Shown: positions 1 to 61,099, counted from the first letter of the stretch. The stretch: 64,000 bases of DNA from Mobula hypostoma (GCF_963921235.1 NC_086107.1:113276001-113340000), one strand, 5' to 3'. Notes: a model not told the origin generated them from the letters alone. Program-made: numbers and translations.

Positions 1-292
1 AGTAGGGGTGAGAGGGTCGGGAATGGGAGAAAGAGAAGTGGGAAGTGTGAGAGAGCAAACAGCGGGGCGTCATTACCAGAACGTATCACCAACCCACCTT
101 CCCCCTTGCCTTGTCTCACCTGTCACCTGCCAGCTTGTATTCCTTCCCCCACCCCCTACCTTCTTACTCTGGTGTGTGTCTGCCCCTTTCCTGTACCGAT
201 AAAGTGTCTCGGTTCGAAGCCTCAACTGTTTCCCTCCTTAGATGCTGCCTGACCCGCTGTCTGTCTGCATTGCTCGCGTTTTGATAACTTAC

Positions 293-415
293 CTCTTTGC
301 CAGGTAGTAGATGTAGAACCATTTCATGCAGGGATGGGCTCTGTGGTGAGGGATGTGTTGTCTCTTAGGTTCTGTGGGTATGTCATGTCTTCTCACAAAG
401 AGCTCAGCCGCTTCA
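293..415 (-). CDS. Secretin-family prepro-hormone, exon 5 (123 nt, phase 2-2): (G)EAAELFVRR-HDIPTEPKRQHIPHHRAHPCMKWFYIYYLAK(R/S); gene continues beyond the window start
   Basis: Minus-strand acceptor ttccttctcattttcag| and donor AAGAG|gtaagt. Open in the frame set by the upstream exons. RR-H motif; same length as exon 4. No homology recognised, so membership rests on splice signals, phase and motif. Confidence 0.72.
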
Positions 416-972
416 CTGAAAATGAGAAGGAATATGAAGAGAGATTTCCATTTATAGGGTGACTGTCTGGACATAACATGTGTTTCATGGTGTTCTCCTT
501 CACTGTTGTCGTACAGGAAATGTGACTTTAGAGATGTATTCTGTATACATACTTTGATAATGAATGTGCTTTGAATCTTTATGTATCTGGTCCCTTAAAA
601 TACCTTCCTATAATTTACCCACTACTGACATTAGACAGGTCAACTAGAACTGCACACAATACTCCCAATGCGGACTCACCCACACCCCTCAGCTCCCTAT
701 TAAATCCTGACCTTTTCCCCTTTAACCTGTGCCCTCTGGTTCTTGATTCCCTAACCCTGGGGAAAAAGACTGTGTGCATTCACCGTATCGGTGCCCCTCG
801 TGGTTTTGTGCACGCCTGTAAGGTCTCCTGTGCTCCAGGGAATAAAGTCCCAAACTGCCAACCTCTCTCCATTACTCAGTCGCCTACGTGCTGGCAAAGT
901 CCTCCTAAACCCCTTCTGAACTCCTTGCAGCTCAATGGCATCTTTCCTACAGCAGGGCCACCCAAAACTGAA

Positions 973-1470
973 CGTAGCACTCCAAGAGGCTCTGACAGTG
1001 CTGGAAATCTTGAGGAACACACAGCAAATGCTGGAGGAACTCAGCAGGTCTGGCAGCATCTATGCAGAGGAATAAACATTCAATGTGTTTTGGGCCAAGA
1101 CCCTTCATCAGGACAGGAAAGGAAAGAGAAGAAGCCAGAATAAGAAGCTGGGGCGGGGAAGGAGAGGGCGAGTACAAGTTGGCAGGTGATGGGTGAGACC
1201 AGGTGAGGGGGGGAACGTGGGTGGGCAGGAGAGGTGGGGGGTGAAGTAAGAAGCTGGCAGGTGATAGATGAAAGAGGTAAAAGACTGAAGAAGAAGGAAT
1301 CAGATAGGACAGGAGAGTGGATCATGGGAGAAAGGGAAGGAGGAGAGGCACCAGCGGGACATGATGGGCAGGGTGAGGAGAAGTGAACGGGTGAGAGGGG
1401 AACCCAAATTAGGAATGGAGAAAGAAAGAATAGGGAGGGGGCAGCAATGATCAAGAAGTTAGAGAAATAG
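973..1470 (-). mobile_element. Degenerate Penelope-derived 3'-end (pLTR-like) repeat with decayed hammerhead motif
   Basis: Same purine-rich body and gctggaggaactcagcagg..gcagcatc terminus as the Penelope copies. Minus strand reads gtc-CTGATGA-agggtcttggccc-AAAA (GAAA mutated). Confidence 0.7.
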
Positions 1471-1699
1471 ATAGATCCCACAAAAAAACAAGGTAATATG
1501 GTTTCATAATCTGTTACAGTGGTTTTGCAATAAGGACTGGACAGGATGTCAGATCAAAATTTCCTCCACTAACTCTGAGCTTTCTATAATGTCCTGAACA
1601 TCAGGGGAAGTGAAGACTTCAGTTTAGGGTCTCAGTGGAAGTCTACTTGGAGAATGAAACGGTGGATCTTGTTTGCTTCCCACCAGGCTAGGAAGTTCA

Positions 1700-2255
1700 G
1701 AATCAGAGTTAAGTTTATCATCTCTGCCATACGTCAAGAAATTTATGACAGCAGTACAGAACAATACATAAAAATTATTACAAATTACAACAACAATAGA
1801 TTCATAGTGAGGTGGTGTTTATGGGATAATGAACTGTCCAGAAATCTGATGACGCAGGGGAAGAATCCGTCCCTAAAATGTTGAGTGTGTATCTCCAGGT
1901 AGTAATGAGAAGAGGGCACGTCCTGGGTGGTGGGGTCCTTCATGATGAATGCTGCCTTTTTGAGGCATCGCGTCCTGGATGCTGGGGAGCCCCATGGTGG
2001 AGCTGGCTGAGTTTAAAACTTTCCGCAGCTTTTCCCAATCCTGTGTAGTGCCCCTACCCACTGCCCACCTTACCAGGTGGTTAGAATGTTCTCCATGGTA
2101 CACCTGTAGAAATTTTTGAGGGACTTTGGTGATATACCAATTCTCCTCGAAATCCTAATGAAATAAAGCCACTGAGGTGCCTTCTTTGTAGTTGCATCAA
2201 TGTGTTGGACCCAGGGTAGACCCTCAGAGACGCTGACACCCAGGAACCTGAATTT
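1700..2255 (-). mobile_element. Rex1/Babar-like LINE 3' fragment, decayed
   Basis: ORF 2070..2264 FLGVSVSEGLPWVQHIDATTKKAPQWLYFIR..SPKSLKNFYRCT resembles the better-preserved copy at 48520-49340. Confidence 0.7.
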
Positions 2256-3893
2256 GTGTGACATTCAGAGTTAATTAAAGGGAGATATAGTTAATGTGTG
2301 TGACTAATGAGGTGGCGTGTATTTAGCAGTGCGTGTATTAGTCATACTGCTGGTTTGTATTGTGTGGTTACGCACAACGAAGTAAACTCAGCCGGCCGGA
2401 GCTGAGTCACACGTTTTGTGATTAGGGAAGGAAATTTGCACTGACTTTAATACCCTGGCTTGGCTGGGGTTCCCACTCCTTATGGCTTCATAACAGCTTC
2501 CGTTGTGGGCATTGCCTAATGATGGGATGGCTCTATGTCTGCTAATCCTTTCCACTCAGGATGCACCAGTGAAAGCACCCTCTCCAGATATGTCACAGCT
2601 GAGTACGGCAAACACTCTGCCCAAGACCCCAAGAAATTGCAGAGAGTTGTGGACACAGCTTAGTCCATCACTGAAACCAGCCAGCTTCCCCTCATGGACC
2701 CTGTCTAACCCTTCCCACTGCCCCAGGAGAGCAGTCGACATAATCGAGGTCCCCCTCCCACCCCGGGACATTCTCTCTTCCCCCTCTATCGATTACAAAA
2801 GACACAAAAGCTTGAAAACATCCACAGTAGAGTCACAGGGTCGTATAGAATGGAAACAGGCCTTTCGGCCCAATGCGTCCGTACTGACCATAAAGCCCAG
2901 CCAGCTAGTCTCATCAGCTGCATTTGGCCCATCTCCCTCTAAGCCTCTCCTATCCATGGATTTATCTAAATGGTCTTTAAATGTTTCTAACATACTCGTC
3001 TCAACCGCTATTTCTGGCAGGTCATTCCAAATATAGAGCACAGAACAAAAAATAAAACTGAGCAACACATCACAGCCCCTTCAGCCCATGACGTTCTGTC
3101 AACATATAAACCTGCTCCTGTCACAGTCCCAAATGAACTTCAGCAGGCATCCAGGTTCAGGTGCTCCAGTTCCACGGAGTATGGTGAGTGGCTGCTGTCC
3201 ATTTAACACTCAAATTGCTAGTTACTGTTGCCTGCCACATTCCTTCATGGAAAGTCTGTACTTTAAGGGTTCATGCTGAGCACTCAGATCTCAATCGTAA
3301 GAGTTTCATTCCCAGTTGCTGATTTTGCCTTTGGGTTTTCTTTGTGTCGTCTTGTTTATTTTGAGTCTGGATAGCCTCCAACCTGATAGCATGAATATCG
3401 ATTTCTCCTTCTGATAAACAAATCTCCCTCCTGCTTCCTCTATTCTCCACTCTGACCTTTTATCCTCTTCTCATCTGTCTTTTACTTCCCTCTGGGTCAC
3501 CTCCTCCTTCCTTTTCTCCCACTGTCCACTCTCCTCTCCTGTCAAACTCCTTCTTCTCCAGCCCTTTACCTTTCCGACCCACCTGACTTCACCTCTCATC
3601 TTCCCCTCCCCCCGTATTTTTATTCTGGCATCTTCTCCCTTCCTTCTCAGTACTGAAGAACGATCTCAGCCTGAAACATCGGCTATCTATTGATTTCCAA
3701 AGATGCTGCCTGACCTGCAGAGTTCCTCCCAAACTTTATGTGTGTTACTCTGGATTTCCAGCATCTGCAGATTTTCTTGTGTTTCTGAGTTAATTATAGA
3801 TCTTACTGTGCACTTGGGAATCACCACTGTCCAAGGCTCTCTCATTACAACTCGATGATCAATCAAACCCTTTCCTCCTACACAGCCCATAAC

Positions 3894-4694
3894 CAGTGTT
3901 CCCTCGAAAGTGTGTGCGTGTGTGCACACATCTTTTGTTACGAGCGCACAAAGGAATTTACCCTTACACAAAAGGTTATCACCCTCTATCTCATTGGCAT
4001 GTTAAGTATATTTCACGACCGTACACAATCGCATTTCCTTTTCCAGTTTCTGATGCGAACAGTGTTGACAACATGGAGTTTGCGATGATTTGTCTGCAGG
4101 TTTTAGAACTGGCTTACTTATACTGTTTTTATTGAAGATATTATTGTTCACTATGTCGAATTCTAAAGAAGCAAAGGTCACGATGCTCAAAAATACTTCT
4201 AGTTCATTTAAAGTGGATTGGCTTAATGAAACAGTAGAAACTGCTACAACGAAAGCTCATGAGGTCAGGAACGTGCAGCTACAAGAAATATTTATGTCCA
4301 ATACAGAAACTGGTGTTACTTGCGTAATGGAAAGGTTGCTGGAGAATTTGCAAGCAGGAAGAAGAGGAGTTATATTTGGAAATTTTGCTTTTTAAAGCAT
4401 CATTCAGCAAGCAAATTACATATACACGGTGTGCAAAAACTTCAGTGAGAACATCCCTCATTACCCACTACAGGCCTGCTACGTATGTTTTGCGAGAGCA
4501 CAGATGAATGAGAACGAAAGCAATCAAACCCAGAGGAAACCAAAGACCTTATTGACAGTGTTTTGCTAGCTGTTAAAATGAATACCTCTATATTTAAAAT
4601 TCAGTGCACACATGTTGTTGTCACTGGGCAAAAATAAATTGTACAGCTCAAGATATTTACACACACTGGTCAATACAAATTAGAGGGAACATAG
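3894..4694. mobile_element. Non-autonomous hAT DNA transposon
   Basis: Imperfect 12-bp TIRs (cagtgttccctc ... gagggaacatag) and an exact 8-bp TSD cccataac (3886-3893, 4695-4702). Inserted into a CR1 3' end. Confidence 0.85.
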
Positions 4695-5030
4695 CCCATA
4701 ACCCTTCATTTTCCTTATAACCATCTGCCTACCTAAGAGTCTTTTAAACACCCCTAATGAGTCAACCTCTACCACCAACCCATGCTGCATTCCAGACACC
4801 CATCACTCTTTGTCTAAAAGAACCGATCTATGACATCTCCCCTAAACATTCCTCGGCTCACATTAATTGGATGTTCTCTGGCTAGGAAAAAGGGAAAATG
4901 TGCTGCTTTATGCTTTATCTTTCCCTCTCATAATCTTGTACACGTCATCAATTTGCCTCTTATCCTCCGTTACCCCAGAGAAAAGCTTAGCTTACTCAGC
5001 CTCTCCTCATAAGACCTGTTCTCTAATCCT

Positions 5031-5329
5031 CAGTGGGCACGTGGCCAAGTGGTTAAGGCATTGGACTAGCGATCTGAAGGTCGTGAGTTCGAGCCCCAGC
5101 CGAGGCAGCATGTTGTGTCCTTGACACATTGCTCTGCGATGACACTGGTGCCAAGCTGTATGGGTGCTAATGCCCTTCCCTTGGACAACATCGGTAGCAT
5201 GGAGAGGGGAGACTTGCAGCATGGGCAACTGCCAGTCTTCCATACAACCTTGCCCAGGCCTGCGCCCTGGAGAGTGAAGACTTTCCAGGCCCAGATCCAT
5301 GGTCTCGCAAGACTAACGGATGCCTTAAA
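5031..5329 (+). mobile_element. tRNA-derived SINE
   Basis: Pol III A box TGGCCAAGTGG and B box GAGTTCGAGCC in the head, about 230 nt of non-tRNA body, and a 9-bp TSD tctaatcct (5022-5030, 5330-5338). Confidence 0.8.
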
Positions 5330-5885
5330 TCTAATCCTTTGCACCCTCTCAGGAGCCACCAAATCCTTTCTATAATCAGATGGCCAGAACTGAACACAGC
5401 AATCTAAGTGTGATCCAGCCAGAGTTTTAGAGAGCTGCAATATTACCTCTCAGCTCTTGAACTCAATTCCCCGACTATTGAAGGCTAACATACCTTCTTA
5501 ACCACTCTATCAACTTTCAGCGCCGCTCTGAGGTGAATTCACAAGTCCGCTGGTGGCTGAGGGTGGCCTGTCCTGGGTTTGTATATGTGTGAGTGAGTTG
5601 TCAGGAGGGAGGCATGTTCTGTTGCTTGTTGTGTACTGTTTTCGGGGGGTACTGTGTTGTTCTGCTGAGTATTGTGGGGACGCTACGTTGGCACCGAAAC
5701 GCGTGGCGACACTTGCGGGCTGCCCCCAGCACAACTTTAGGTTATGTTGGATGCTAACGCAAACGGCGCCCTTTGGCGGATGTGTAATAAATAATTGAAT
5801 TGGAACCTGGATCAATGTCACCTCAGATCGGGTGGCATTCCAAAGGTCGGGTGAAGGGAGTTCCCTTAGATCATTGTGCACTCAC

Positions 5886-6008
5886 CCTCTTTCAGGAGAC
5901 CGGAAGGCCGAGAGGAATTCTTTCATGTCCTGCAGGGTGATGGTAAGGCCACGATGAGTCATGTCGTCCCAGTGCTGGAGATGTCTCTTCACCTTCTTGG
6001 CAGTGGAA
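5886..6008 (-). CDS. Secretin-family prepro-hormone, exon 4 (123 nt, phase 2-2): (S)STAKKVKR-HLQHWDDMTHRGLTITLQDMKEFLSAFRSPER(G)
   Basis: Acceptor aatgctattttcag|, donor AGAGG|gtgagt, open frame in phase with exon 3, KVKR convertase site followed by His. Unique, non-repeat sequence. Confidence 0.78.
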
Positions 6009-8899
6009 CTGAAAATAGCATTGAAACTGAACAAAAACTTCACTCAAAGGGTTAATCTGCAGATTGCCGATTCTCTGGGATACTCTGGAGCTATTCCAGG
6101 TATAATTGCATTGAGGTGTACACTTAACATCATACCGGGAGGGGGTTTCGTGTGGATAAACCCCCACTACCTGTTAAATGCTCCCAACAGCATTCGTCGC
6201 AAATAGCCTCTGAAAACCGTTCAGCTCCTGGGGCTTCGCTACTAAGTCAGGTGGAACCGTTTCAACTGACAGGAGGAGGAGGCAAAGGCGGGTTGCTGGC
6301 ATCTTAAAACCAGTCATTTGGGGCAGACAAAATTCTGTAAACGCTAGAGAAAATCCCGGGAAATCAGCAGCTTCCGAGATGCTCAAACGAGCAATCATTC
6401 CATGGCCAGAAGTCATTTAGGTCACATTTCTTCCCCACTTTGATGTTTGGTCTGACCAGCAACCGAATCTCTTGACCATGTCTGCATGCTTTTATGTGTT
6501 GAGTTGCTGCCACATGATTGGCTGACTAGATATTTGCATTAACAGGCAGGTGTACAGGTATACTTAATACAGCGGCCACCAGGTGTATAAGGGTGCGTAC
6601 CAAGTCCTGGTACTTAAGTGGAGTACGATAATGTTCTTGACAGTTGGCATAGACTTGTAGATCTAAAGACTCATTTTTGTGCTCGAACAACTCCAGAACC
6701 CGGACTAATCTGGTGACAGTGGTTTCAATTCCACCAGGGTAATTCTGGAGATCAAATTTGAATAACTATATAAAGCTGGGAATAAATTCCCTCCGGTTTC
6801 TTTCTCTTTATTCCACAAGGGCACCATGGACTGCAGTGGTTAGTGCAATGCTAACATAGCACAGCGTGTCAATTCCAATGTCATCTGCAAGGAGTCTGTT
6901 CGTCCTCTTTGTCAATGTTTACGTTTCCTCCGGGTGCCCCAGTTTCCTCCCACAGTCCAAACGCTCACCAGCTAGTAGGTCATTTGGTCATTGTAAATCA
7001 GACCATAAGAGCATAAGATATAGGAGCAGAATTAGGCTATTTGGCCTATCAAGTCCGCTCTGCCATTTCATCATAGCTGATCCATTTTCCCTCTCAGCCC
7101 CAATCTCCTGCCTTCTCCCCGTAACCCTTCATGCCCTGACTAATCAAGAATTTATCAACCTCTGCCTTAAATATACTCAATAACTTGGCCTCCACAGCCA
7201 CCTCTGGCAATTAATTCCACAGATCCACCACCCTCTGGCTATTCCGCCTGATCTCTGTTCTAAAAGGATGCCCCTCTATTCTGAGGCTGTGTCCTCTGGT
7301 CTTAGACTCCCCCACTATAGAAAACATCCTCTCCACACCCACCCTATCGAGCCCTTTGTTCCATAATTAAGTTAGGGTTGAGAGCAGCTCGAAAGGCCGA
7401 CTCCCCACTGTATCTCAAAATAAATAAATATAACTTCCATGGCCTACTCAGATTCTTTCTTCTTCAGCTGTTTACCAGATGAGGGGGAGGGTAGGTGGCT
7501 GGGAGAAGGGGCAAGAAAGGGAATAATGTGAGAAGCTGCCTCTCATCTCCTAGCTTCTCACATCATTCTCTTTCATCTCCCCTCCCCTGCCCTCACCTGG
7601 TCTCACCTATCACCTGCCAGCTTGTGCTCCTACCCCCACCCCCTTTCCCCACACCTCCTTATTCTAGCTTCTGTCCCCTTCCTTGCCGGTCTTGATTAAG
7701 ATTCTTGGCCCGAGACATCAACTGTTTATTCCCCTCCATAGATACCGCCTGACCTGCTGAGTGCTTCCAGTATTTTGTGTGTGTTGCTGTAAATTTCTAC
7801 AACTGCGGGATCAGTAATGCCTGGGATTAAAAGGCTACAATTAGCCATTGTACCCAGGAGACACACAACTTGCCCTGAAAACCCACTTGATACTGCCTAC
7901 CTGCTGAGTTTGTTTTTTATTGCGGGTTTCGAGCCGCTGCAGTTTTGAACTTCTAACTTTCAGCAAGCTTCTCTTCACCTTTCACCTTTCCGAGAAAGCG
8001 CGGTCACGTTCTCAAGGTGGGTAAGGACAGCCGACAATTTGCACAGAGGGAGAGCTCTCAAGCAGCAGAACCCTATCAACGTTGTCAAGTGCATCTCCTC
8101 CACCCACCAGTCTCAGCTCGCGCCCCCCAACTTGTAAAACGCTTTTGGCGCCACGTTCAATGTTGTGCTCATTTCCAGGGAGCGGGGCTTTAACTCAGCT
8201 CTGCCTGCTTGCCTCTTATTTTTGGTTTCGAGGCCTCCTCCAGTCCCTCCAGTGAAAAGGTTTGATTGGTATGTGAGGAAAGCCTTTTGTCATCTTGTAA
8301 TTGAGATGTTAACCCAAGGGTGGGAGGGAAGGAAGGGCGGGGCTTGTTCTGATGTTGTTGTTTTGTTTACTTATGTATGTATTTATTTTTATTTAGAGAT
8401 ACAGCGCGAAATAGGCAGTCCCAGCCCTCCCAGCCATAACCCCCCAGTTTAACCCTAACCTAACCATGGGACAATTTACAATGACCAATTAATGTACTTT
8501 TGCCAAGAATACATCATATGATACAACACATAATGACAATGATGATAAATTAATCTACTAACCGGTACGCCTTTGGACTGTGTGAGGAAACTGGAGAACC
8601 CGGAAAAAACCCATGCATTCCATGGGAAGAACATTCAGACTCCTGACAGGGGATACTGGAATTGAACTTGGAACTCTGGTGCCCAGAGCTGTAATAGCGT
8701 TGCGCTAACCGCTACATTTCCGCGGCTTTGCCTGTTGTGTTCTCCATTGTTCTGCTGAGCTATCTTGGTGCCGGAATGTGTGGCGACACTTGCAGGCTGC
8801 CTCCAGCGGATGCTTAGGTTGTGATCGTTTTTAACGCAAATGGAGCATTTCACTGTATGCTTTGGTGTACACCTGATATATAAGTGGACCGAGATATAG

Positions 8900-9235
8900 A
8901 CCTGGACCAGAATCTCAACCTGGAAATGGATCTGGAAATGAAACAGGACCTGGATCTGGACCTGGATCTGGATCTGGATCTGGACCTGGATCTGGACCAG
9001 GATCTGAACCTGGATCTGGATATGGATATGGACCCGGATCTGGACCTGGATCTGGATATGGATATGGTCCCGAATCTGGATCTGGATCTGGACCTGGATC
9101 TGGACTCGGATCTGGACCTGGATCTGGACCCAGATCCGGATCTGGATCTGGACCAGGATCTGGATCTGGATCTGGATCTGGACCTGGATCTGGATCTGGA
9201 CCTGGATCTGGACCCGGATCTGGATCCGGATTTAG
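8900..9235. repeat. Hexamer tandem repeat (GATCTG/GACCTG)n
   Basis: Directly visible; produces the spurious DL/DP-repeat ORFs 8884..9255 and 8915..9271. Confidence 0.95.
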
Positions 9236-10193
9236 TTCTGTACTTTGTTTTGTAAATGTAAATGATCTCATGACACTAATCTGGAGGAGGATATCGGAGA
9301 TCTTCTCTATGTTCTAAACAATACTTATCACTTAACTGACCTAAGAAAAGCATATTCTTCGTTCATTATTACAGTGACCTTCATGATATTTTGCCTGGTA
9401 TAAACTAGCTACTGTTTTCTCTGCATCATATCAGTGACTACACTCCCACTACAATTCATTGTTTGTAAAGCTCTGGGAGATACTGCTAACATCACAAGGG
9501 CATAAGATATAGGAGCAGAACTAAGCCATTTGGCCCATTGAGTCTGCCCCATCATTCAAGCATGGCTGATTTATTATCCCTCTTAACCCTATTCTCTTGC
9601 CTTCTCGCTGTAACTTTTGTCACCCCGACAAATCAAGAATCTATCAACCTCCACTTTAAATATACCCAACGACAGCCTCCACAGCTGTCCCTGGCAATGA
9701 ATTGCACAGATCCACCATAGATTTGGCTAAAGAAATTCCTCCTCATCTCTATTCTGAAGGAACATCCTTGTATTCTGTGGTTCAGTCCTCTGGGTCTGGA
9801 CTCTCCCCCTCCCCACCCCATAGGAAATACCCTCTTCATATCCCCTCTATCTAGTCCTTTCAAAATTCAGTAGGTTTCAATGAGATCCTCCCTCACTCTA
9901 CTAAACTCCAGCAAATACAGGCCCAGAGCCATCAAATCCTCTTCCTACTTAACCCTTTCAACTCTTTCATTCTAGGGATCATTCTTATGAACCTGCTCTG
10001 GACCCTCTCCAATGTCAGCACACCCTTTGTTAGTCAAGGGGCCCAAAACCACTGACAGTTCTCCAAGTTAAACTCCTATCTAGAAACAAATCCCCATCTA
10101 GAAACTCTTGCCTCAGAATCAAGCAGATACCCGGTGAGGCAGCTGCCAGTGTTGTTACCAATTGTGGTTACTGGATCTTTCCAGAATACTTAC

Positions 10194-10298
10194 CTCGTTT
10201 GGGCCCCCAGTATCGAGTTCAGAAAGTTTCGAGCTGCAGTCCTTCCCCTCACTTTACTCAATTCACTGGTGAACAGACTGTCTGAGTGCCTCTTGTGT
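10194..10298 (-). CDS. Secretin-family prepro-hormone, exon 3 (105 nt, phase 2-2): (R)HKR-HSDSLFTSELSKVRGRTAARNFLNSILGAQT(S); secretin-like mature peptide starts at 10288
   Basis: Acceptor tcttctcttccatctcag| and donor ACGAG|gtaagt. KR followed by HSDxxFTSELSK is the secretin/VIP/glucagon-superfamily signature, with F22/L23/I26/L27 amphipathic-helix positions kept. Confidence 0.93.
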
Positions 10299-11232
10299 CT
10301 GAGATGGAAGAGAAGAGCTGTTCAGATTTTAATGTTTCTATGTCTGTTGCACACTTGCACTAGAGGGAGGGGAGGCTTGTAAACAGGAGCAAGATTGACT
10401 GGTCACAATGCACTGATTTATATCAAATCAGAATCAGGTTTAATATCGTGCTGTGAAATTTGTTATCTTTGCAGCAGCAGTACAATGCAATACATAATAA
10501 TAGAAAAAATGCAAATTACAGTAAATATATATATTAAATAGTTAAATTAAATAAGTGGCAAGGTAGTGTTCATGGATTCAATGTCCATTCAGAAATCTGA
10601 TGACAGAGGGGAAGAAGCTGTTCCTGAATCATTGCATGTACCTCCTTCCTGACGGTACCATTGAGAACAAGACAAACAGATATCTGATTAAATGCAAACG
10701 GATCCCAAAGTGCAAAGCCAATTCAAAGTAAATTTATTATTATCAAATTACATATATGTCTGCATATACCAACTTGAGATCATTTTAAAAATACAATAGA
10801 AACAATGAAAAACTGCACACAAAGACTGACAACCAACGTGCAAGAGAAGATAAACAGTGGAAATTTAAAAATAAACTGATAGGTAATACTGTGGAGAAGA
10901 GTTGTAGAGTCCTTGAAAGTGAGACCATTAGTTGTGGAACCAGTTCAGAGTTGTGGTGAGTGAAGTTATCCACACTGGTTCAGGATCCTGATAGTTGAGA
11001 GGTAATAGCTGTTCCTGAACCTGGTGGTGTGGGTCCTGAGGCTCCTGTACCTTCTTCCCGGTGGCAGTAGTGAGAAGAGAGCACGGCCTCGACCATATCT
11101 CCAACCACGTTAGGTTGGATGAAGGTGCTCATAGTTGGAAAGGAAAAGAAGCTGCTCCCAGTGCCAGGAGGCTCAAGATAATTGGTAGATATACTGTGAG
11201 AGTGGGAAGGGAAATGGGAAGCAATATTTTAT

Positions 11233-12323
11233 GCAACACACATCAAAGTTGCTGGTGAACGCAGCAGGCCAGGCAGCATCTCTAGGAAGAGGTACAGTCG
11301 ACGTTTCGGGCCGAGACCCTTCGTCAGGACTAACTGAAGGAAGAGTGAGTAAGAGATTTGAAAGCTGGAGGGGGAGGGGGAGATCCAAAATGATAGGAGA
11401 AGACAGGAGGGGGAGGGATGGAGCCAAGAGCTGGACAGGTGATAGGCAAAAGGGATATGAGAGGATCATGGGACAGGAGGCCCAGGGAGAAGGAAAAGGG
11501 GGAGGGGGGAAAACCCAGTGGATGGGCAAGGGGTATAGTCGGAGAGACAGAGGGAGAAAAAGGAGAGAGAGAGAAAGAAAAACAATGTGTGTATATAAAT
11601 AAATAACGGATGGGGTACGAGGGGGAGGTGGGGCACTAGTGGAAGTTTGAGAAGTCAATGTTCATGCCATCAGGTTGGAGGCTATCCAGGTGGAATATAA
11701 GGTGTTGTTCCTCCAACCTGAGTGTGGCTTCATCTTTACAGTAGAGGAGGCCGTGGATAGACATGTCAGAATGGGAATGGGATGTGGAATTAAAATATGT
11801 GGCCACTGGGAGATCCTGCTTTCTCTGGCAGACAGAGCGTAGGTGTTCAGCAAGACGATCTCCCAGTCTGTGTCAGGTCTCGCCAATATATAGAAGGCCA
11901 TATCGGGAGCACTGGACGCAGTATATCACCCCAGATGACTCACAGGTGAAGTGTCGCCTCACCTGGGAGGACTGTCTGGGGCCCTGAATGGTGATAAGGG
12001 AGGAAGTGTAAGGGCATGTGTAGCACTTGTTCCGCTTACAAGGATAAGTGCCAGGAGGGAGATCGATGGGGAGGGATGGGGGGTATCAAAGGACAAGGGA
12101 GTCGTGTAGGGAGCAATCCCTGCGGAAAGCGGTGGGGGGGAGGGAGGGAAAGATGTGCTTAGTGGTGGGATCCCATTGGAGATGGCGGAAGTTACGGAGA
12201 ATAATATGTTGGACCTGGAGGCTGGTGGGTTGGTAGGTGAGGACCAGGGGAACCCTATTCCTAGTGGGGTGGCAGGAGGATGGAGTGAGAGCAGATGTGC
12301 GTGAAATGGGGGAGATGCGTTTA
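11233..12323 (-). mobile_element. 5'-truncated Penelope-like retroelement (Cys-rich linker, GIY-YIG endonuclease, 3' end)
   Basis: Close relative of the 15704-17965 arms. Flanked by a 14-bp direct repeat agcaatattttatg (11220-11233, 12323-12336). Confidence 0.88.
11296..11331 (-). ncRNA. Minimal type I hammerhead ribozyme motif (Penelope-associated)
   Basis: Minus strand: AGUC-CUGACGA-aGGG(ucucgg)CCC-GAAA-CGUC^GACU. Intact core, stem I AGUC/GACU, palindromic ACGU stem III. Confidence 0.75.
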
Positions 12324-12689
12324 GCAATATTTTATGTACATGTTGTATTTAGAATTGGGAACGTTATGCCTGTAAGGGCGGATTCAATAGCAGCTTTCAA
12401 GGAAGAACTGGACAATTTACATAGAAAGCAAAATGGAACAGAGCAAATAGGACTGCTCTTTCACACTATTACCATGCAGAGACCTGGGATCAATTCTGTC
12501 ACTGACGTTAAGGAGATTGCATGTTCTCCCTATGACCACCTGGATCTCCTCTGGCTGCTCCCACGTTCCAAAGGTGTGTGGGTTTGTAGGTGTAGTTGGT
12601 GTAGTTGGTCAACACAGGTTCATTAGCCTGGAGGGCCTGTGACCCTGCTGTATTTCTAAATAAAACAGATAAAATAAATAAAATTGCCA

Positions 12690-13850
12690 GTTTATCTGGC
12701 AAAATGCCTCATCGCCAGATCTCACCAACAGGCACCAGGACCTCGCCTGGCTGGTGGTGAGAGGGGCCCTCCCAGTCAGATCCCTCCTATACCCCCGGAA
12801 CATCGTCTCCACACCCCACTGCCCACGGGAGGACTGCAGTGAGAAGGAGTCTGTGACCCACCTCTTTGCACACTGTGAGTTCGCAAAGAGGGTGTGGAGG
12901 AGGATGGACGGGCTAGTGTCACGTTTTATCCCCAGCAGCTGCGTAACAGAGGACTCTCTGATCTACGGGCCATTCCTGGGGACGCACACGGAGACCAACA
13001 TCCGGTGCTGCTGGCAGATCATCAACTCGGTGAAAGACGCCCTTTGGTCGGCCCGAAACTTGATGATCTACCAGCACATGGAGATGTCCGTGGGAGAATG
13101 CTGCCGACTGGCACGTTGTCGACTGCAGGAGTACGTGCTGAGGGACGCACTGAAACTCGGTGCAGCCACCGCAAGGGCCCGGTGGGGAAGGACCGCTGTA
13201 TAGGTTTCTCCACCCGCGGGAGTGGGAGGGGTCGGGGGGCGGGGAGTATACCCCTCAACAATGATGTGGTAAGCTGAACTACTGGAGTGCCACGTGGGTG
13301 GCCATAAGTATGGATAGGTGCAGACTATAATGGAAAGTATGTTAAGGATGGAAAGTTATTGAATGGTTTATTGTATTGGATCAAGTAGGCTTATTCTTGT
13401 TGGAATTTAGAAGATTGAGGGAGGATCTTATTGAAATGTATAAAATCCTAAAGAGATTGGACAGGCTAGATGCAGGAAGATTGTTCCCGATGTTGGGGAA
13501 GTCCAGAACGAGGGGTCACAGTTTAAGGATAGAAGGGAAGCCTTTTAGGACCGAGATGAGGAAAAACTTCTTCACACAGAGAGTGGTGAATCTGTGGAAT
13601 TCTCTGCCACAGGAAACAGTTGAGGCCAGTTCATTGGCTATATTTAAGAGGGAGTTAGATATGGCCCTTGTGGCTAAAGGGATCAGGGGGTATGGAGGGA
13701 AGGCTGGTACAGGGTTCTGAGTTGGATGATCAGCCATGATCATACTGAACGGTGGTGCAGGCTCGAAGGGCCGAATGGCCTACTCCTGCACCTATTTTCT
13801 ATGTTTCTACATAATTTATTTTTGAATGAAGCATATTTTGAAAAAAAAAT
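12690..13850 (+). mobile_element. L1/Tx1-clade LINE 3' fragment (12690-13375, tail resumes ~13811-13850) interrupted by a CR1 3' fragment (~13376-13810)
   Basis: ORF 12754..13203 has the ORF2 C-terminal zinc-knuckle pattern CPREDC..ESVTHLFAHC.FA.RVW. The insert encodes CR1 LEFRRLREDLIEMYKI..FFTQRVVNLWNSLP and ends in tttctatg repeats. An A-tract follows. Confidence 0.8.
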
Positions 13851-14012
13851 TTCTAAATAAAATACGAAGTTAGTGCAGGCATTAGTGGCCCTAATGACCT
13901 CCTTCAGTGCTGTAAGATTCTGCAAAGTGAGTGGAAACACCAAGAAGTTTTGTGTCTCTGAAAACACCTTGAAAGAGAGGAACGTGAATACTGTTGAAAG
14001 ATCTGCGCTCAC

Positions 14013-14101
14013 CTGCGTGCTGTCGGGAAGGACTGTGCCACTTGGAGAATGAAAGCCACCATCAGGAGGATCTGAACTTTGAGCCAGGGTCTCCCAGCCA
14101 T
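14013..14101 (-). CDS. Secretin-family prepro-hormone, coding part of exon 2 (exon 14105-14013): signal peptide MAGRPWLKVQILLMVAFILQVAQS-FPTAR(R)
   Basis: Acceptor tctacctttgcag|GACCATGG with a strong Kozak context. Basic n-region, hydrophobic h-region, A-Q-S cleavage motif. Donor CGCAG|gtgagc in phase 2 joins exon 3 in frame (RRHKR-HSD). Confidence 0.9.
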
Positions 14102-14301
14102 GGTCCTGCAAAGGTAGAATCGATTAGAATCTCAAGACTGTTGGAAATTGTTCTGACTTTCTTGCAGTCACCTTCCTGCTCCGTTACCCAACCATCTTCA
14201 GAAGAATCGGGCAGATTAGGATTCAGATCCAGGTCTAGAACAGGCCAATAAATAACTTGGCCCATTTCTTGGAATATTATGAATCAGCTGATTTTACTGC
14301 T

Positions 14302-14433
14302 CAACTTCTTGAACTAGTGTGGTGCCAACTTCTTGAACTAGTGTGGTGCCAACTTCTTGAACTAGTGTGGTGCCAACTTCTTGAACTAGTGTGGTGCCAA
14401 CTTCTTGAACTAGTGTGGTGCCAACTTCTTGAA
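14302..14433. repeat. Perfect 24-bp minisatellite (caacttcttgaactagtgtggtgc) x5.5
   Basis: Identical head-to-tail units, no spacers. Confidence 0.95.
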
Positions 14434-16831
14434 TTAGATTTCTAAAAATGTTCTTCCTTCATGCAATGGCATCTATCACCCAGCCCTAAATGCCCTGAAA
14501 TGAAGATACAGTTCAGTCAACTATAGAGAGGTGTTGAGAAGACTCGAAACAATTATTTAAAGGGGCGCTTGAAATTTTTGGATGGCGGGATGGAGATACA
14601 TCTCTACTAAAGGAGGCGTAAGGCACTGCCTTCCCTCCGCTAGGCTGAAGGTCACCCTTGGGGAGGTGTAGCACCTGCTTAGCCCCAATCATGGTCATGA
14701 AAAGCCATGGGAGCAGGTAGTGGATGGTCATACGAGCAGCTGGTGCATATCACATATCCTGGTTATGCGGCCACTGACGCCAGGCAGACAGTCTCTGAAG
14801 AGTACTGATCGTGGCTGGGTTCAGCTGTCTTGCCCAGAAGAAGGCAATGGCAGAGCACTTCTGTAGAAAGTTTGCCAGGTGCAATCATGGCTATGAGACC
14901 GTGATCGCCCATGTTGTACGACACAGCACATAATGACGATGATGATGACTTGGAATTAATGTAACCTGTCTTTGTGCCGTCCTTCCAAGTAAACCAAAAG
15001 CTGGACTATTCACTTAATCTCAGAGCCGATCTGCCTGCTTTAGAACATAGAACACTACAGCACAGTACAGATCCTCAGCCCACTGTGTTGTGCTGATCTT
15101 TTAACCTACTCAGATCAATCTAACCCTTCCCTCCCACATAGCCCTCCATTTTTCTATCATCCATGTGCCTATCTAAGAGTTCTTCCAGGTCCCTAATAAA
15201 TCTGCCTCAACTATCACCCCTGGCAGTGCTTTCCATGTACCCACCACACTCTGCGTAAAAAATTACTTCTGACATCCCCTCTATACTTTCCTCCAATCAT
15301 TTAAAATTATGTCCCCTTTGTATCAGCCATTTCCGTCATTGGCAGTTCACCCAGTCTATGCCCCTTATCATCTTTACACCTCTATCAAGTCACCTCACAT
15401 CCTCCTTCACTCCAAAGGGAAAAGCCCTAGCTCGCTCATAAAACAGGGTCTCTAATCCAGGCAGCATCCTGGTAAATCTCCTCTGCACCCCCTGTGAAGG
15501 TTCCACATCCTTCACATAATGAGGCGACCAGAACTGAACACAATATTCCAAGTGAGATCTAAACAGGGCTTTATGGAGCTGCAACATTACCTCACGGCTC
15601 TTGAACCCAAACCCCCAACTAATGAAGGCCAACACACTATGCATCTTCTTAACCACCCTATCAACTTGCATACAACAGGAATTCTGCAGATGCTGGAAAT
15701 TCAAGCAACACACATCAAAGTTGCTGGTGAACGCAGCAGGCCAAGCAGCATCTATAGGAAGAGGCGCAGTCGACGTTTCAGGCCGAGACCCTTCGTCAGG
15801 ACTAACTGAAGGAAGAGTGAGTAAGGGATTTGAAAGCTGGAGGGGGAGGGGGAGATGCAAAATGATAGGAGAAGACAGGAGGGGGAGGGATGGAGCCGAG
15901 AGCTGGACAGGTGATAGGCAGAAGGGGATACGAGAGGATCATGGGACAGGAGGTCCGGGAAGAAAGACGGGGGGGGGGTGACCCAGAGGATGGGCAAGAG
16001 GTATATTCAGAGGGACAGAGGGAGAAAAAGGAGAGTGAGAGAAAGAATGTGTGCATAAAAAAGAGTAACAGATGGGGTACGAGGGGGAGGTGGGGCCTAG
16101 CGGAAGTTAGAGAAGTCAATGTTCATGCCATCAGGTTGGAGGCTACCCATACGGAATATAAGGTGTTGTTCCTCCAACCTGAGTGTGGCTTCATCTTTAC
16201 AGTAGAGGAGGCCGTGGATAGACATGTCAGAATGGGAATGGGATGTGGAATTAAAATGTGTGGCCACTGGGAGATCCTGCTTTCTCTGGCGGACAGAGCG
16301 TAGATGTTCAGCAAAGCGGTCTCCCAGTCTGCGTCGGGTCTCACCAATATATAAAAGGCCACATCGGGAGCACCGGACGCAGTATATCACCCCAGTCGAC
16401 TCACAGGTGAAGTGATGCCTCACCTGGAAGGACTGTTTGGGGCCCTGAATGGTGGTAAGGGAGGAAGTGTAAGGGCATGTGTAGCACTTGTTCCGCTTAC
16501 ACGGATAAGTGCCAGGAGGGAGATCAGTGGGGAGGGATGGGGGGGACGAATGGACAAGGGAGTTGTGTAGGGAGCGATCCCTGCGGAATGCAGAGAGAGG
16601 GGTGGAGGGAAAGATATGCTTAGTGGTGGGATCCCGTTGGAGGTGGCGGAAGTTACGGAGAATAATATGTTGGACCCGGAGGCTGGTGGGGTGGTAGGTG
16701 AGGACCAGGGGAACCCTATTCCTAGTGGGGTGGTGGGAGGATGGAGTGAGAGCAGATGTACGTGAAATGGGGGAGATGCGTTTAAGAGCAGAGTTGATAG
16801 TGGAGGAAGGGAAGCCCCTTTCTTTAAAAAA

Positions 16832-17572
16832 TCTTCATTTTTTAAAGAAAGGGGCTTCCCTTCCTCCACTATCAACTCTGCTCTTAAACGCATCTCCCCC
16901 ATTTCACGTACATCTGCTCTCACTCCATCCTCCCACCACCCCACTAGGAATAGGGTTCCCCTGGTCCTCACCTACCACCCCACCAGCCTCCGGGTCCAAC
17001 ATATTATTCTCCGTAACTTCCGCCACCTCCAACGGGATCCCACCACTAAGCATATCTTTCCCTCCACCCCTCTCTCTGCATTCCGCAGGGATCGCTCCCT
17101 ACACAACTCCCTTGTCCATTCGTCCCCCCCATCCCTCCCCACTGATCTCCCTCCTGGCACTTATCCGTGTAAGCGGAACAAGTGCTACACATGCCCTTAC
17201 ACTTCCTCCCTTACCACCATTCAGGGCCCCAAACAGTCCTTCCAGGTGAGGCATCACTTCACCTGTGAGTCGACTGGGGTGATATACTGCGTCCGGTGCT
17301 CCCGATGTGGCCTTTTATATATTGGTGAGACCCGACGCAGACTGGGAGACCGCTTTGCTGAACATCTACGCTCTGTCCGCCAGAGAAAGCAGGATCTCCC
17401 AGTGGCCACACATTTTAATTCCACATCCCATTCCCATTCTGACATGTCTATCCACGGCCTCCTCTACTGTAAAGATGAAGCCACACTCAGGTTGGAGGAA
17501 CAACACCTTATATTCCGTATGGGTAGCCTCCAACCTGATGGCATGAACATTGACTTCTCTAACTTCCGCTAG
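16832..17572 (+). CDS. Penelope-like ORF C-terminal fragment: RT thumb region, Cys-rich linker and GIY-YIG endonuclease (mirror copy 16097-16832 on minus); 5'-truncated, no start codon
   Basis: Uninterrupted frame SSFFKERGFP..VPLVLTYHP..PGTYPCKRNKCYTC..FTCESTGVIYCVRCSRCGLLYIGETRRRLGDRFAEH..VATHFN..EQHLIFRMGSLQPDGMN. A Cys-rich linker is typical of the Neptune group. Confidence 0.88.
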   Translation, partial: SSFFKERGFPSSTINSALKRISPISRTSALTPSSHHPTRNRVPLVLTYHPTSLRVQHIILRNFRHLQRDPTTKHIFPSTPLSAFRRDRSLHNSLVHSSPPSLPTDLPPGTYPCKRNKCYTCPYTSSLTTIQGPKQSFQVRHHFTCESTGVIYCVRCSRCGLLYIGETRRRLGDRFAEHLRSVRQRKQDLPVATHFNSTSHSHSDMSIHGLLYCKDEATLRLEEQHLIFRMGSLQPDGMNIDFSNFR

Positions 17573-17865
17573 GCCCCACCTCCCCCTCGTACCCCATCTG
17601 TTACTCTTTTTTATGCACACATTCTTTCTCTCACTCTCCTTTTTCTCCCTCTGTCCCTCTGAATATACCTCTTGCCCATCCTCTGGGTCACCCCCCCCCC
17701 GTCTTTCTTCCCGGACCTCCTGTCCCATGATCCTCTCGTATCCCCTTCTGCCTATCACCTGTCCAGCTCTCGGCTCCATCCCTCCCCCTCCTGTCTTCTC
17801 CTATCATTTTGCATCTCCCCCTCCCCCTCCAGCTTTCAAATCCCTTACTCACTCTTCCTTCAGTT

Positions 17866-17901
17866 AGTCCTGACGAAGGGTCTCGGCCTGAAACGTCGAC
17901 T
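17866..17901 (+). ncRNA. Minimal hammerhead ribozyme motif (mirror copy 15768-15803, minus strand)
   Basis: AGUC-CUGACGA-AGG(gucucgg)CCU-GAAA-CGUC^GACU. Confidence 0.75.
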
Positions 17902-18149
17902 GCGCCTCTTCCTATAGATGCTGCTTGGCCTGCTGCGTTCACCAGCAACTTTGATGTGTGTTGCTATCAACTTGCATGGCAACTTTGAGGAATCTATGGA
18001 TGAGGACCCCAAGAACCCTCTGTTCTTCCACACCATCAAGAATCCTGCTATTAACCTTCTATTCTACCTTCAAATTCAACCTTCCAACATGATTCTTCCC
18101 ATCTCTTGGAGGAATGTACACAGATCCCTGCTTCACACAGCAGAAAGAT

Positions 18150-18612
18150 ATACTCAGTGGCCACTTTATTAAGTACACCTGTACATCTGCTTATTAATGC
18201 AAATATCTAAACAGCCAATCCTGTGGCAGCAACTCAATGCATAAAAGCATGCAGACACGGTCAAGAGGTTCAGTTGTTGTTCAGACCAAACATCAGAATG
18301 GGGAAGAAATGTGATCGAAGTGACTTTGACTATGGGTGATTGTTGGTGATAGATGCAGTGGTTTGAGCATCTCACAAACTGCTGATCTGCTGGGATTTTC
18401 ACACACAACAGTCTCTGGACTTTACAGAGAATGGTGTGAAAATCATAAGAAGATACAATGAGCAGCAGTTCTGGGGTTGAAAACCCCTGGTTAATGAGAG
18501 AGGTCAGAGGAGAATGGCCAGACTGCTTCAGACTGACAGGAAGGCGACAGTAACTCAAATAACCATGTGTTACAACAGAGGTGTGCACAAGAGCATCTCA
18601 GAAAGCACAACA
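18150..18612 (+). mobile_element. Non-autonomous Tc1-like element (related copies ~6380-6590, 34000-34552, 38855-39270, 63410-63910)
   Basis: Shared terminus cagtggccactttattaggtacacctg, a decayed Tc1 HTH-coding segment, and multiple dispersed copies. Confidence 0.65.
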
Positions 18613-19125
18613 TAGGACATAGAACATAGTACAGTACAGCACAGTACAGGATCTTCGGCCCACAATATTGTGCCGACCTTCAAACCCTGCCTCCCATATA
18701 AGCCCCCAACTTAAATTCCTCCATATACCTGTCCAGTGGTCTCTTAAACTTCACTAGTGTATCTGCCTCCACCACTGACTCAGGCAGTGCATTCCACGCA
18801 CGAACCACTCTCTGAGTAAAAAACCTTCCTCTAATGTCCCCCTTGAACTTCCCACCCCTTACCTTAAAGCCATGTCCTCTTGTATTGAGCAGCGGTGCCC
18901 TGGGGAAGAGGTGCTGGCTATCCACTCTATCTATTCCTCTTATTATCTTGTACAGCTCTATCATGTCTCCTCTCATCCTCCTTCTCTCCAAAGAGTATGT
19001 TGGACCTTGAAGTGGACGGGCCACACCAGCAAAAGTCCAAGAATACTCAACGGCTGCTTGATTAGGTACAGGAAGTTCCTAACAAGTGGCCACTAACCAA
19101 ATGAAGAAAATACATTTTTACTTAC

Positions 19126-19185
19126 AGTGTTTCTGGAGCAGGTACCTCGCTTGTGAGAGGAACAGTCCAGCTAATGCTTTTGACT
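19126..19185 (-). other. Putative non-coding exon 1 of the secretin-family gene (5' end inferred from TATA position)
   Basis: Donor ACACT|gtaagt at 19126/19125 in unique sequence, about 80 nt downstream of a TATA box. Exon 2 begins with an acceptor 4 nt before the ATG, so an upstream exon is required. Confidence 0.65.
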
Positions 19186-19207
19186 CCTAAGATCCAACGA
19201 ACTTCCT

Positions 19208-19340
19208 CTATATACTCTCCTGATCTTGAGATCACCGGATATATCCACTCACTCAAAGCCTGCTTCTTTGATTCACTCCCATAATTGACAAGCAAACTGT
19301 CTTTTATCTTGCTCATGGAAGGTCAAGGTTAGATAAACCA
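19208..19340 (-). promoter_or_regulatory. Putative core promoter of the secretin-family gene
   Basis: TATATAG on minus at 19214-19208, GATA motifs (ttatct 19304-19309, agataa 19331-19336), and nuclear-receptor half-site-like aaggtca/tcaaggtta at ~19319-19331. Confidence 0.55.
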
Positions 19341-27231: not shown

Positions 27232-28065
27232 TTGGCCACTCCAGGTCATTAATTTTCTTGTTTTTAAGACATTCCTGTGTAGCTTTGGTTTTATGCTTGA
27301 GTCATTGTCTTGCTGGAAGACAAATCTTCTCCCAAGTCACAGTTCTCTTGCAGACTGCATTAGGGTTTCCTCCAGGATTTCCCTGTATTTTGCTGCATTC
27401 ATTTTACCCTCTACCTTCACAAGCCTTCCAGGGCCTGCCGCAATGAAGCATCCGCACAGCATGATGCAGCCACTACCATGCTTCACGGTAGGGATGGTGT
27501 GTCTTTGATGATGTGCAATGTTTGGTTTACGCCAAACATAGAGTTTAGTCTGAAGGCCGAAAGGCTCAATTCTGGTTTCATCAGACCATAGAACCTTCTT
27601 CCAGCTGACTCCAGAGTCTCCTACGTGCCTTCTGGCAAACTCTAACCATGATTTCATGTGAGTTTTTTTCCAACAGCGGCTTTCTCTTTGCCGCTGTCCC
27701 GCAAAGCTGCAACTGGTGAAGTACCCGGAGACTGCCGTATGCACAGTCTCTCCCATCTTGGCTTGTAACTCCTCCAGAGCTGTCATAGGTCTCTTGGTGG
27801 CCTCCCTCACTGGTCCCTTTCTTGCACAGTCACTCAGTTTTTGAGGACGGCCTGCTCTAGGCAGATTTACAGCTGTGCCATATTCTTTCCAGTTCTTGAT
27901 GATTGACTTAACTGTACTCCAAAGGATATTCAGTGACCTGGAAATTTGCTTCTATCCATCTCCTGACTTGTGCTTTTCAATAATCTTTTTGTGGGGTTAC
28001 TTGGAGTGTTCTGTTGTCTTCAGGGTGTAGTTTCGTCCAGGATACTGTTTCGCCAATAGTTGGAC
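27232..28065 (-). mobile_element. Tc1-like transposase pseudogene fragment
   Basis: REATKRP..LEELQ..LEFARRH..WKKVLWSDETRIE.FG..YVWRK..TIPTVKHGSG.IM..GCF.AAGPGRLVKVEGKMNAAKYREILEE; truncated and disrupted. Confidence 0.9.
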
Positions 28066-55931: not shown

Positions 55932-56126
<195 letters not shown>

Positions 56127-60962: not shown

Positions 60963-61099
60963 CTGGCAGGAGTCCTTCTTGCCCTCTGGGTAACCAGCAC
61001 ATATCATCTGGGGCGTGATGGAGTAGGAGTACGCTTCATTACAAACTGACTGATCCACCAGTTTCACGTCCACTTTCTGAAGAACATCTTCTACTGGAC
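60963..61099 (-). CDS. TMPRSS6: Matriptase-2-like protease, penultimate exon (137 nt, phase 1-0): (G)PVEDVLQKVDVKLVDQSVCNEAYSYSITPQMICAGYPEGKKDSCQ
   Basis: Acceptor ttctttcctttcag|, donor CCAG|gtacaa; splices in frame to GDSGGP. LQKVDV..Y.Y..TP.M.CAGY..GKKD.CQ is TMPRSS6-like; Asp189 indicates trypsin-like specificity. Confidence 0.9.

Follow-up and report, generated by a model that had tools for sequence, protein, structure and literature searches.

A secretin-type prepro-hormone gene of Mobula hypostoma, one of two on its contig

Secretin was the first hormone to be discovered, and its gene was long thought to be missing from fishes. Wang et al. are said to have reported, in 2012, a chicken-type SCT gene encoding both SCT-LP and SCT, and Cardoso et al. 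(2014, Gen Comp Endocrinol) reportedly recorded SCT in coelacanth and elephant shark. The sct gene of zebrafish and other fishes was described in December 2025 (PLoS Biol, PMC12714231); according to the accessible part of that paper, the gene had long been overlooked because its precursor is so divergent, and in zebrafish a precursor region conserved across fishes yields pyroglutamyl peptides. The same part treats neither elasmobranchs nor a second copy, and a full-text literature search, covering few subscription journals, returned nothing on secretin in elasmobranchs or on a pair of secretin genes. Here we analyze a 64,000-nucleotide (nt) stretch of the genome of Mobula hypostoma (C45:113276001-113340000, hereafter the window, in whose numbering coordinates are given unless stated otherwise), the minus strand of which carries most of a spliced hormone gene. 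This gene is a secretin-subfamily precursor with one family hormone, and not the founder of a new hormone family; it is real and had no name until now, but it is of an already annotated kind. The point worth pursuing is that the genome has two secretin-type genes and that the window gene lies away from the conserved locus.

Structure and expression of the gene

Within the window, the gene comprises one non-coding and four coding exons, all bounded by GT-AG sites. When the exons were joined by script, the coding junctions were in phase 2 throughout and the spliced frame remained open over 146 amino acids (aa), up to the last in-window exon. Exon borders, splice sites, phases, the open frame of at least 146 aa and the motifs quoted in the initial annotation (a hydrophobic N-terminus, then KR-HSDSLFTSELSK.., KR-HLQHW.. 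and RR-HDIPT..) all hold on rereading the minus strand. The acceptors of the coding exons are pyrimidine-rich and end in AG, and the donors of exons 2, 3, 4 and 5 read GTGAGC, GTAAGT, GTGAGT or GTAAGT. Exon 2 (14013..14105) contains the start codon (14101-14099, context ACCATGG), ends in phase 2 and, judging from its hydrophobic run, encodes a putative signal peptide. Exon 3 (10194..10298), identified by its match to the Hormone_2 family, encodes an RHKR site followed by the secretin-type hormone, the 27-mer of which corresponds to positions 10288-10208; exon 4 (5886..6008), placed by colinear alignment, encodes a KKVKR site and then a fast-evolving stretch beginning with HL; and exon 5 (293..415), supported by tblastn and by a profile, encodes a linker and the first half of a two-cysteine C-terminal domain (C-x-x-W-F). 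The initial annotation had advised extending the sequence leftwards for the remaining exons, and there, in the left flank, 3.1 kb past the window edge, a profile of the shark C-terminal domain located exon 6 (window coordinate -3112 to -3226, i.e. C45:113272888-113272774, minus strand). This exon is 115 nt long including the TAA stop codon, is in phase 2, follows the acceptor ...CCTTGCAG, and completes the precursor to 184 aa, encoded by six exons over about 22.5 kb.

The orthologous protein of the basking shark (P0001, see below) also delineates these exons. Used as a tblastn query, it retrieved the four coding exons as its four best matches in the 64 kb, in order, with E values of 5.8e-12, 1.4e-4, 2.2e-4 and 0.007; since it recovers exactly these four in the right order, the exons are beyond chance. 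The second and third of these values belong to exon 2 (against residues 1-29 of P0001, with 15 of the 28 aligned residues identical) and to exon 5 (against residues 107-149), respectively.

The non-coding first exon was likewise borne out. Exon 1 (19126..19261, minus strand) is a stretch of 5' untranslated region (UTR) that contains no ATG in its 136 nt and ends at 19126, immediately before a donor GTAAGT beginning at 19125; its 5' end is a minimum, set by a sequencing contig. The contig in question, 1,709 letters long, was assembled from run X1: its letters 1-137 match 19261-19125 without mismatch, the match stops at the exon-1 donor, and the single letter shared past exon 1 is a G, which is also the first base of exon 2. 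As for the TATA box proposed earlier, the motif TATATAG is present at 19214-19208 (minus strand), but it is probably not a core promoter because it lies within 19261-19125, in the part of exon 1 matched by the X1 contig, whose start is located 47 nt upstream of it. The TATA-like sequence GATAAAAG at 19308-19301 (minus strand) might suit the start of this contig better.

Words sampled from exon 3 were all present in run X1 (six out of six) and next to absent from two sister runs; X1 is taken to be an RNA run by guess only, and no exon-3 words were found in the runs recorded as RNA. When contigs of runs X1, X2, X4 and X5 were compared with positions 250-19300 at 90% likeness, repeats swamped the matches and masked whatever signal junctions 14013/10298, 10194/6008 and 5886/415 might give. 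The summed contig depth is very high over most of 250-19300, as expected for interspersed repeats. According to the accessible part of a study of the catshark pancreas, liver and brain transcriptome (PMC4362833), no secretin transcript was recovered there, which says little because the intestine was not among the tissues sampled.

Could the gene be a silent or decaying copy from which no hormone is made? No run recorded as RNA contains it, its propeptide evolves fast and its introns are filled with repeats. Yet the 184-codon frame begins in an ACCATGG context and is intact over six exons whose splice sites fit the consensus, the hormone is conserved with sharks at 20 of 27 positions, and the X1 contig ends at the exon-1 donor. 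We therefore hold a silent copy to be extremely improbable.

Repeats also occur in the introns and near the 3' end of the gene. Intron 1 contains a perfect inverted repeat (15704-16832 and 16837-17965) with arms of 1,129 nt that are 100% complementary and separated by a 4-nt spacer; it stems either from an assembly artefact or from a repeat that was duplicated in inverted orientation very recently. Intron 3 contains a long simple repeat (8638-9314). Some 750 bp downstream of exon 6 (L008, about 6100-5975, minus strand) lies a second copy of the exon-6 end, consisting of the last ~70 coding nt with the stop codon and the ~55 nt of 3' UTR that follow it; between the two copies is an inserted repeat, the ends of which are inverted copies of each other.

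The hormone, the propeptide and the two-cysteine domain

The peptide encoded by exon 3 matches Pfam family PF00123 (Hormone_2) with 38.1 bits, the cut-off being 21.2, over profile positions 1-28 out of 28; its His1 is directly preceded by RHKR, in a precursor whose N-terminus contains a hydrophobic run. A word-indexed search with exon 3 led to two annotated shark proteins, and one of these led to a third; the three orthologues are the 'uncharacterized protein' LOC144669437 of the basking shark Cetorhinus maximus, the 'uncharacterized protein' LOC119956275 of the catshark Scyliorhinus canicula and a partial hypothetical protein of S. torazame. All three are colinear with the window protein over every exon junction, and each is identical to its 27-mer at 20 of 27 positions, the corresponding figures being 16/27 for elephant-shark secretin, 13/27 for the catshark PHI-like peptide and 11/27 for catshark VIP. 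Together, the Hormone_2 match and the shark orthologues support the first proposal that a spliced prepro-hormone gene of the secretin superfamily, unlisted and with its secretin-like peptide on an exon of its own, lies here. The epithet 'undescribed' is only partly appropriate: the shark orthologues are indeed uncharacterized LOC entries, but elephant-shark secretin is named in UniProt and fish secretin has been in print since December 2025 (PMC12714231).

A full HMMER pass with the catshark protein through 1.84 billion representative sequences gave 13 matches at E≤1e-3, and names were looked up for 10 of them. Among these are the 'Secretin' of the elephant shark (V9L9J8, E 7e-8, aligned over residues 18-189 of 195), secretin-named proteins of two marsupials, a tortoise and a caecilian, an unnamed frog protein, one gecko VIP, and a paddlefish 'VIP peptides-like' protein that has the same architecture as the catshark protein.

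The initial annotation had recognized at least two further, very divergent His-initiated cassettes in exons 4 and 5, which would make the gene a new multi-peptide system, with exons 3, 4 and 5 each giving a His-initiated bioactive family peptide. In Mobula hypostoma, a dibasic site precedes His in all three stretches, and the start of exon 4 (basic site, His, Leu) is kept in all four sequences compared, i.e. the window gene and three sharks out of three. Moreover, other fish prosecretins have a conserved second peptide at the exon-4 position, as the part of PMC12714231 available to us also indicates. In the proteins of the chimaera (elephant shark), paddlefish, two sturgeons and arowana, this peptide follows a basic site, begins with QLGD and has the core FT(S/N)-x-Y; when chimaera is compared with paddlefish, its conservation equals that of the hormone (23/44 versus 15/27 identical residues). 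The QLGD cassette presumably corresponds to the region that yields the pyroglutamyl peptides of fishes, insofar as the accessible part of PMC12714231 describes it, and colinear alignment makes exon 4 its positional counterpart. However, exon 4 is identical to its shark counterparts at 15-16 of 40 positions and to that of the chimaera at only 6 of 40, and a profile of five QLGD cassettes did not find exon 4 at E≤20, nor did it give any credible match at the locus of the window gene or at that of the second gene described below.

Other searches run in the same direction. No Hormone_2 match was obtained in exons 2, 4 and 5 at E≤10; the family-hormone profile recognizes one domain only in the window protein (54.3 bits) and a mere 6.2-bit remnant in the second cassette of the chimaera; and tblastn detected no other family exon in the window. 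Multi-hormone precursors (proglucagon, VIP/PHI, PACAP/PRP, avian SCT-LP/SCT) have a recognizable family peptide on at least two exons; here, a single exon carries one. The RR-His site of exon 5 is absent from the three shark orthologues, which have LRDQD, LRNPD and QRNPD instead, exons 4 and 5 are 30-40% identical to their shark counterparts versus 74% for the hormone, and exon 5 belongs to the two-cysteine domain that continues into exon 6. By all of these searches, exons 4 and 5 are propeptide, and not two more family hormones: the multi-peptide explanation is largely refuted for exon 5 and highly improbable as a whole.

Exons 5 and 6 together encode the two-cysteine C-terminal domain (C-x-x-W-F ... 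C). A profile built from four other cartilaginous-fish proteins recognizes it in the completed window protein (33.7 bits, residues 133-180). Run against 95 proteins, a set that is not an unbiased sample since it was gathered with a profile including this very domain, the same profile matched sturgeon and paddlefish proteins with 21-27 bits, and secretin-named proteins of many birds, an alligator and turtles as well as unnamed frog proteins with about 10-20 bits; in this set, the VIP precursors of sharks and gecko gave no match, and those of teleosts none below E 0.65. Note that the domain, as a feature of prosecretins, was derived in the present analysis and is not a curated family definition. 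It is conserved from sharks to birds and has been lost in placental mammals, and it is this domain, more than the hormone, that ties the window gene to the secretin subfamily. The literature, as far as accessible, offers no proposal for its function. A structure prediction with AlphaFold2 from a seven-sequence alignment of the shark protein was unusable (mean predicted local distance difference test score, pLDDT, of 42.2), and a Protein Atlas search with the domain gave a best score of 0.81, to Hormone_2 precursors, which is under 0.9 and counts as a lead only.

Chimaera, paddlefish, sturgeons, frog, turtle and bird have a dibasic site directly after the 27-mer; the four sequences of the window-gene type (window gene and three sharks) all have other residues there, and their next basic cluster lies 8-14 residues past the 27-mer. 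Because of this loss, and of the distance to the next cluster, an extended hormone devoid of an amidation signal is predicted. By analogy with the hormone family, on which each of the following steps is modeled, the signal peptide would first be removed, and prohormone convertases would then cleave after RHKR, exposing His1 of the secretin-like peptide. For want of a dibasic site after the 27-mer, the next cleavage would occur at KKVKR, 8 to 11 residues further on, releasing a C-terminally extended, probably non-amidated peptide of ~35-38 aa, which may act on a class-B1 receptor of the secretin/VPAC group via Gs and cyclic AMP.

A second secretin-type gene and the origin of the two copies

A whole-genome search with the shark protein revealed that this contig has another secretin-type gene, at 0.70 Mb, which is 112.6 Mb away from the window gene; hereafter, the window gene is referred to as copy A and the other gene as copy B. 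The hormone exon and two C-terminal-domain exons of copy B lie at C45:704591-715272 on the plus strand (loci L029 and L032), in phase 2 throughout. The hormone exon is 105 nt long, exactly like exon 3 of copy A, has the same phase, begins with 12 identical nt and encodes the same RHKR-His start; its peptide matches Hormone_2 with 36 bits and has a Leu at the family position Phe6. The two other exons, 9 and 10.5 kb downstream of the hormone exon, carry the frame to a stop codon and encode a two-cysteine domain that is closer in look to that of bony vertebrates. Altogether, the hormone exons of copies A and B are identical at 62 of 105 nt and at 14 of 34 third positions; third positions being nearly saturated, the duplication is old, not recent.

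Copy B is located in what appears to be the secretin neighborhood. S3 Table of PMC12714231, a source accessible in part, gives the order deaf1-drd4-sct-cdhr5b-irf7 for the elephant shark and ric8a-deaf1-drd4/sct-cdhr5b for gar. Family searches placed near copy B a Ric8 gene at 0.28-0.33 Mb (one of three loci in the genome), a SAND-domain gene at 0.494 Mb (one of four) and an IRF gene at 0.93-0.945 Mb (one of nine), and the resulting order, Ric8, SAND, copy B, IRF, agrees with that of gar and elephant shark. By our own estimate, as opposed to a computation, it is very unlikely that three rare markers would occur in the expected order within 0.7 Mb by chance.

The following explanation accounts for these observations and is held with moderate confidence as a whole. 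The window would hold five (exons 1-5) of the six exons of a ~22.5-kb gene that encodes an SCT-subfamily prepro-hormone of 184 aa (copy A) and whose orthologues are the 'uncharacterized LOC' genes found in basking shark and catsharks. Copies A and B would be old duplicates of a single ancestral secretin gene, arising most simply by local duplication followed by a rearrangement that separated A from B, in which case both would be co-orthologues of tetrapod SCT. Copy B would have kept the ancestral neighborhood of Ric8, SAND gene, SCT and IRF, and copy A would have come to lie beside SLX1, IGF2 and an achaete-scute-like gene. A broader proposition is more tentative, namely that elasmobranchs have two secretin-type genes, a Leu6 copy at the ancestral locus and the window gene elsewhere on the same chromosome, the latter with a canonical N-terminus, a rebuilt propeptide and a hormone that is longer and non-amidated.

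Trees (21 rows, 83 columns) were computed under LG+G4 and under a mixture model from the hormone plus the C-terminal domain; the outgroup consisted of three PHI peptides, for which only the hormone columns were used. The window gene clusters with the three shark proteins in one clade, with a support of 98-99/97-98. The trees give no date for the A/B duplication. Two rival explanations of the two copies were weighed.

According to the first, copy A is the sole true orthologue of vertebrate secretin, which has been relocated, and copy B is a lineage-specific duplicate at the ancestral site, possibly decaying. Under LG+G4, the copy-A clade groups with elephant-shark secretin (81/84); A retains the near-invariant Phe6 that is Leu6 in B; and A is annotated in three sharks, whereas B-type proteins number zero among 84 profile matches and 13 representative matches. 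Furthermore, a heuristic search of the 10.5 kb upstream of copy B found no signal-peptide exon. However, the node joining A and the chimaera collapses under the mixture model, the splice sites of B are intact and its frame is open through three exons to the stop codon, its C-terminal domain looks more like that of bony vertebrates, and the third positions argue against a recent duplication. We regard this explanation as unlikely.

The second rival takes copy B as the secretin orthologue and the copy-A clade as an older paralogue, i.e. a secretin-like hormone gene, so far undescribed, that cartilaginous fishes have kept and that would have a function, and perhaps a receptor preference, of its own. 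In its favor, it is B, not A, that lies within the block of Ric8, SAND and IRF genes, B, on a long branch, joins the tetrapod secretins weakly (75-77/74), the propeptide of A is derived and has lost the post-hormone dibasic site, and the orthologues of A are unnamed in NCBI. But the elephant-shark secretin, which resides in the conserved block, is in sequence no more distant from A than from B (16/27 identical residues versus ~12/26, by hand count) and joins A in the LG+G4 tree, approximately unbiased (AU) tests do not favor the required topology, and the RHKR site and the first 12 nt of the hormone exon are common to A and B. An older paralogue is in our view distinctly improbable.

Several points also weigh against the explanation that we prefer, old duplication with copy B at the ancestral site. 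At the peptide level, the assignment to secretin is weak as judged from sequence: in a phmmer search of the PDB, human secretin (E 0.15) comes behind VIP (0.0027) and PACAP (0.035), and the identity to catshark PHI is close to that to elephant-shark secretin. The processing scheme, the extended mature peptide and the receptor are all extrapolated from the family, and read-level support exists for the exon-1 junction only. With regard to the trees, the loss of the node joining copy A and the chimaera under the mixture model and the long branch and weak placement of copy B both count here, and AU tests reject none of the constrained groupings (A+B, p 0.21; A+B+chimaera, 0.25; B+chimaera, 0.34). 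Copy B, for which the upstream search yielded no signal-peptide exon, may be incomplete or dead. The identity of its neighbors is loose: the PDB matches leave the IRF gene unnamed, with IRF4, IRF10, IRF7 and IRF3 all falling within E 1e-14 to 1e-16, and those of the SAND gene are SP140, SP100 and GMEB1, with no identification of DEAF1; no zf-MYND exon was found near the SAND gene on that part of the contig, and neither DRD4 nor CDHR5 was found within 694-744 kb. Finally, the conserved secretin neighborhood, (ric8a-)deaf1-drd4-SCT-cdhr5-irf7, does not surround the window gene, no seven-transmembrane (DRD4) or cadherin (CDHR5) exon having been found from -120 kb to +125 kb.

The Pfam scan of this region covered all 368 open reading frames (ORFs) of at least 55 aa from window positions 19300-64000, and, in the flanks (120 kb downstream, 80 kb upstream), 585 of the 606 single-copy ORFs that reach 50 aa, the 21 dropped being mostly minisatellite. 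Upstream, on the same strand as the hormone gene, lie the last exons of a trypsin-fold gene, a TMPRSS-like protease (55935-56126, 60924-61145, L020:2314-2679 and L020:9289-9633, minus strand, including an LDLa exon), whose best PDB match is TMPRSS6 (1.4e-15). Downstream are SLX1 (GIY-YIG and SLX1_C exons, L010:3062-3337 and 9297-9512, minus strand, from Pfam), IGF2 (B- and A-chain exons, L016:9489-9668 and L014:1103-1477, plus strand) and an achaete-scute-like basic helix-loop-helix gene (L018:6989-7456, minus strand); IGF2 was preferred to IGF-I on the PDB matches (IGF-II, 2.4e-13, versus IGF-I, 4.6e-7). Human 11p15.5 carries IGF2, ASCL2 and also SCT, so that the linkage of the window gene is regional, not local. 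Between 10 and 18 kb downstream of the gene, a 6-kb region of long Pro/Thr/Ser/His-rich frames (L009:1542-7620) was considered as a possible mucin-like CDHR5 exon and rejected: it is a G-rich minisatellite of ~207 copies, open in several frames, and its period, 29, is not a multiple of 3. The rest of the window contains an ORF for a reverse transcriptase of the long interspersed nuclear element (LINE) type (43827-45080, plus strand, RVT_1, 123 bits) and a remnant of a Tc1/Sleeping-Beauty-type transposase helix-turn-helix (27340-27951, minus strand).

Comparison with described precursors

Giving secretin-type names to the 'uncharacterized' shark genes would fill a gap in chondrichthyan annotation. 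Beyond that, the two-copy arrangement is a testable handle on the evolution of the secretin gene around the split between cartilaginous and bony vertebrates, with one copy at the conserved locus and the other beside IGF2, a post-hormone cleavage site lost in copy A, and a QLGD second peptide absent from both copies as far as profile searches could detect. If both copies are indeed expressed, the product of the window gene would be a secretin-like hormone of sharks and rays that is so far undescribed and has a tissue pattern or a receptor preference of its own.

The C-terminal half of the hormone (..FLNSIL) resembles that of VIP, which is the best sequence match in the PDB. However, VIP/PHI precursors contain two family peptides and no two-cysteine domain, whereas the window precursor contains one peptide and the domain, and VIP is encoded separately, by a VIP-type gene on another contig in Mobula hypostoma and as a separate protein in the catshark. 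The VIP-type gene (C22:7114262-7126904, plus strand, loci L030 and L031) has a PHI-like exon, HSDGLFTSELSK.., and a VIP exon that begins with Glu-Val-Asp-Asp, not His-Ser-Asp-Ala, and hence is without the His1 normally needed in the family; it may be a second, divergent VIP paralogue.

With the prosecretins of sauropsids and marsupials, the window gene has in common an SCT-type hormone (FTSELSK core) and a two-cysteine domain, theirs being recognized by the cartilaginous-fish profile; these precursors differ in containing two tandem Hormone_2 peptides (two Pfam stretches) where the window precursor has one. As in the fish sct gene (PMC12714231, from its accessible part), the precursor is divergent. 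In fish sct, though, the conserved region C-terminal to the hormone gives processed peptides with an N-terminal pyroglutamate, whereas the corresponding cassette of the window gene and its shark orthologues starts with His and is not recognizably conserved.

The closest described relative is elephant-shark secretin (Callorhinchus milii; V9L9J8, NCBI LOC121850333). Unlike the window gene, it keeps a KR after the hormone and a well-conserved second peptide (QLGD...FTS), it lies between drd4 and cdhr5b, where the window gene does not, and it spans 3.8 kb instead of ~22.5 kb. The initial annotation had stated that the precursor fits no family member; its layout of putative signal peptide, hormone, middle exon and two-cysteine domain is in fact that of non-mammalian prosecretins, and elephant-shark secretin, a precursor of similar length (~190 aa), shares each element of it: a putative signal, an SCT-type hormone introduced by R-x-x-R-His, a middle exon after KR and a C-x-x-W-F ... 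C domain.

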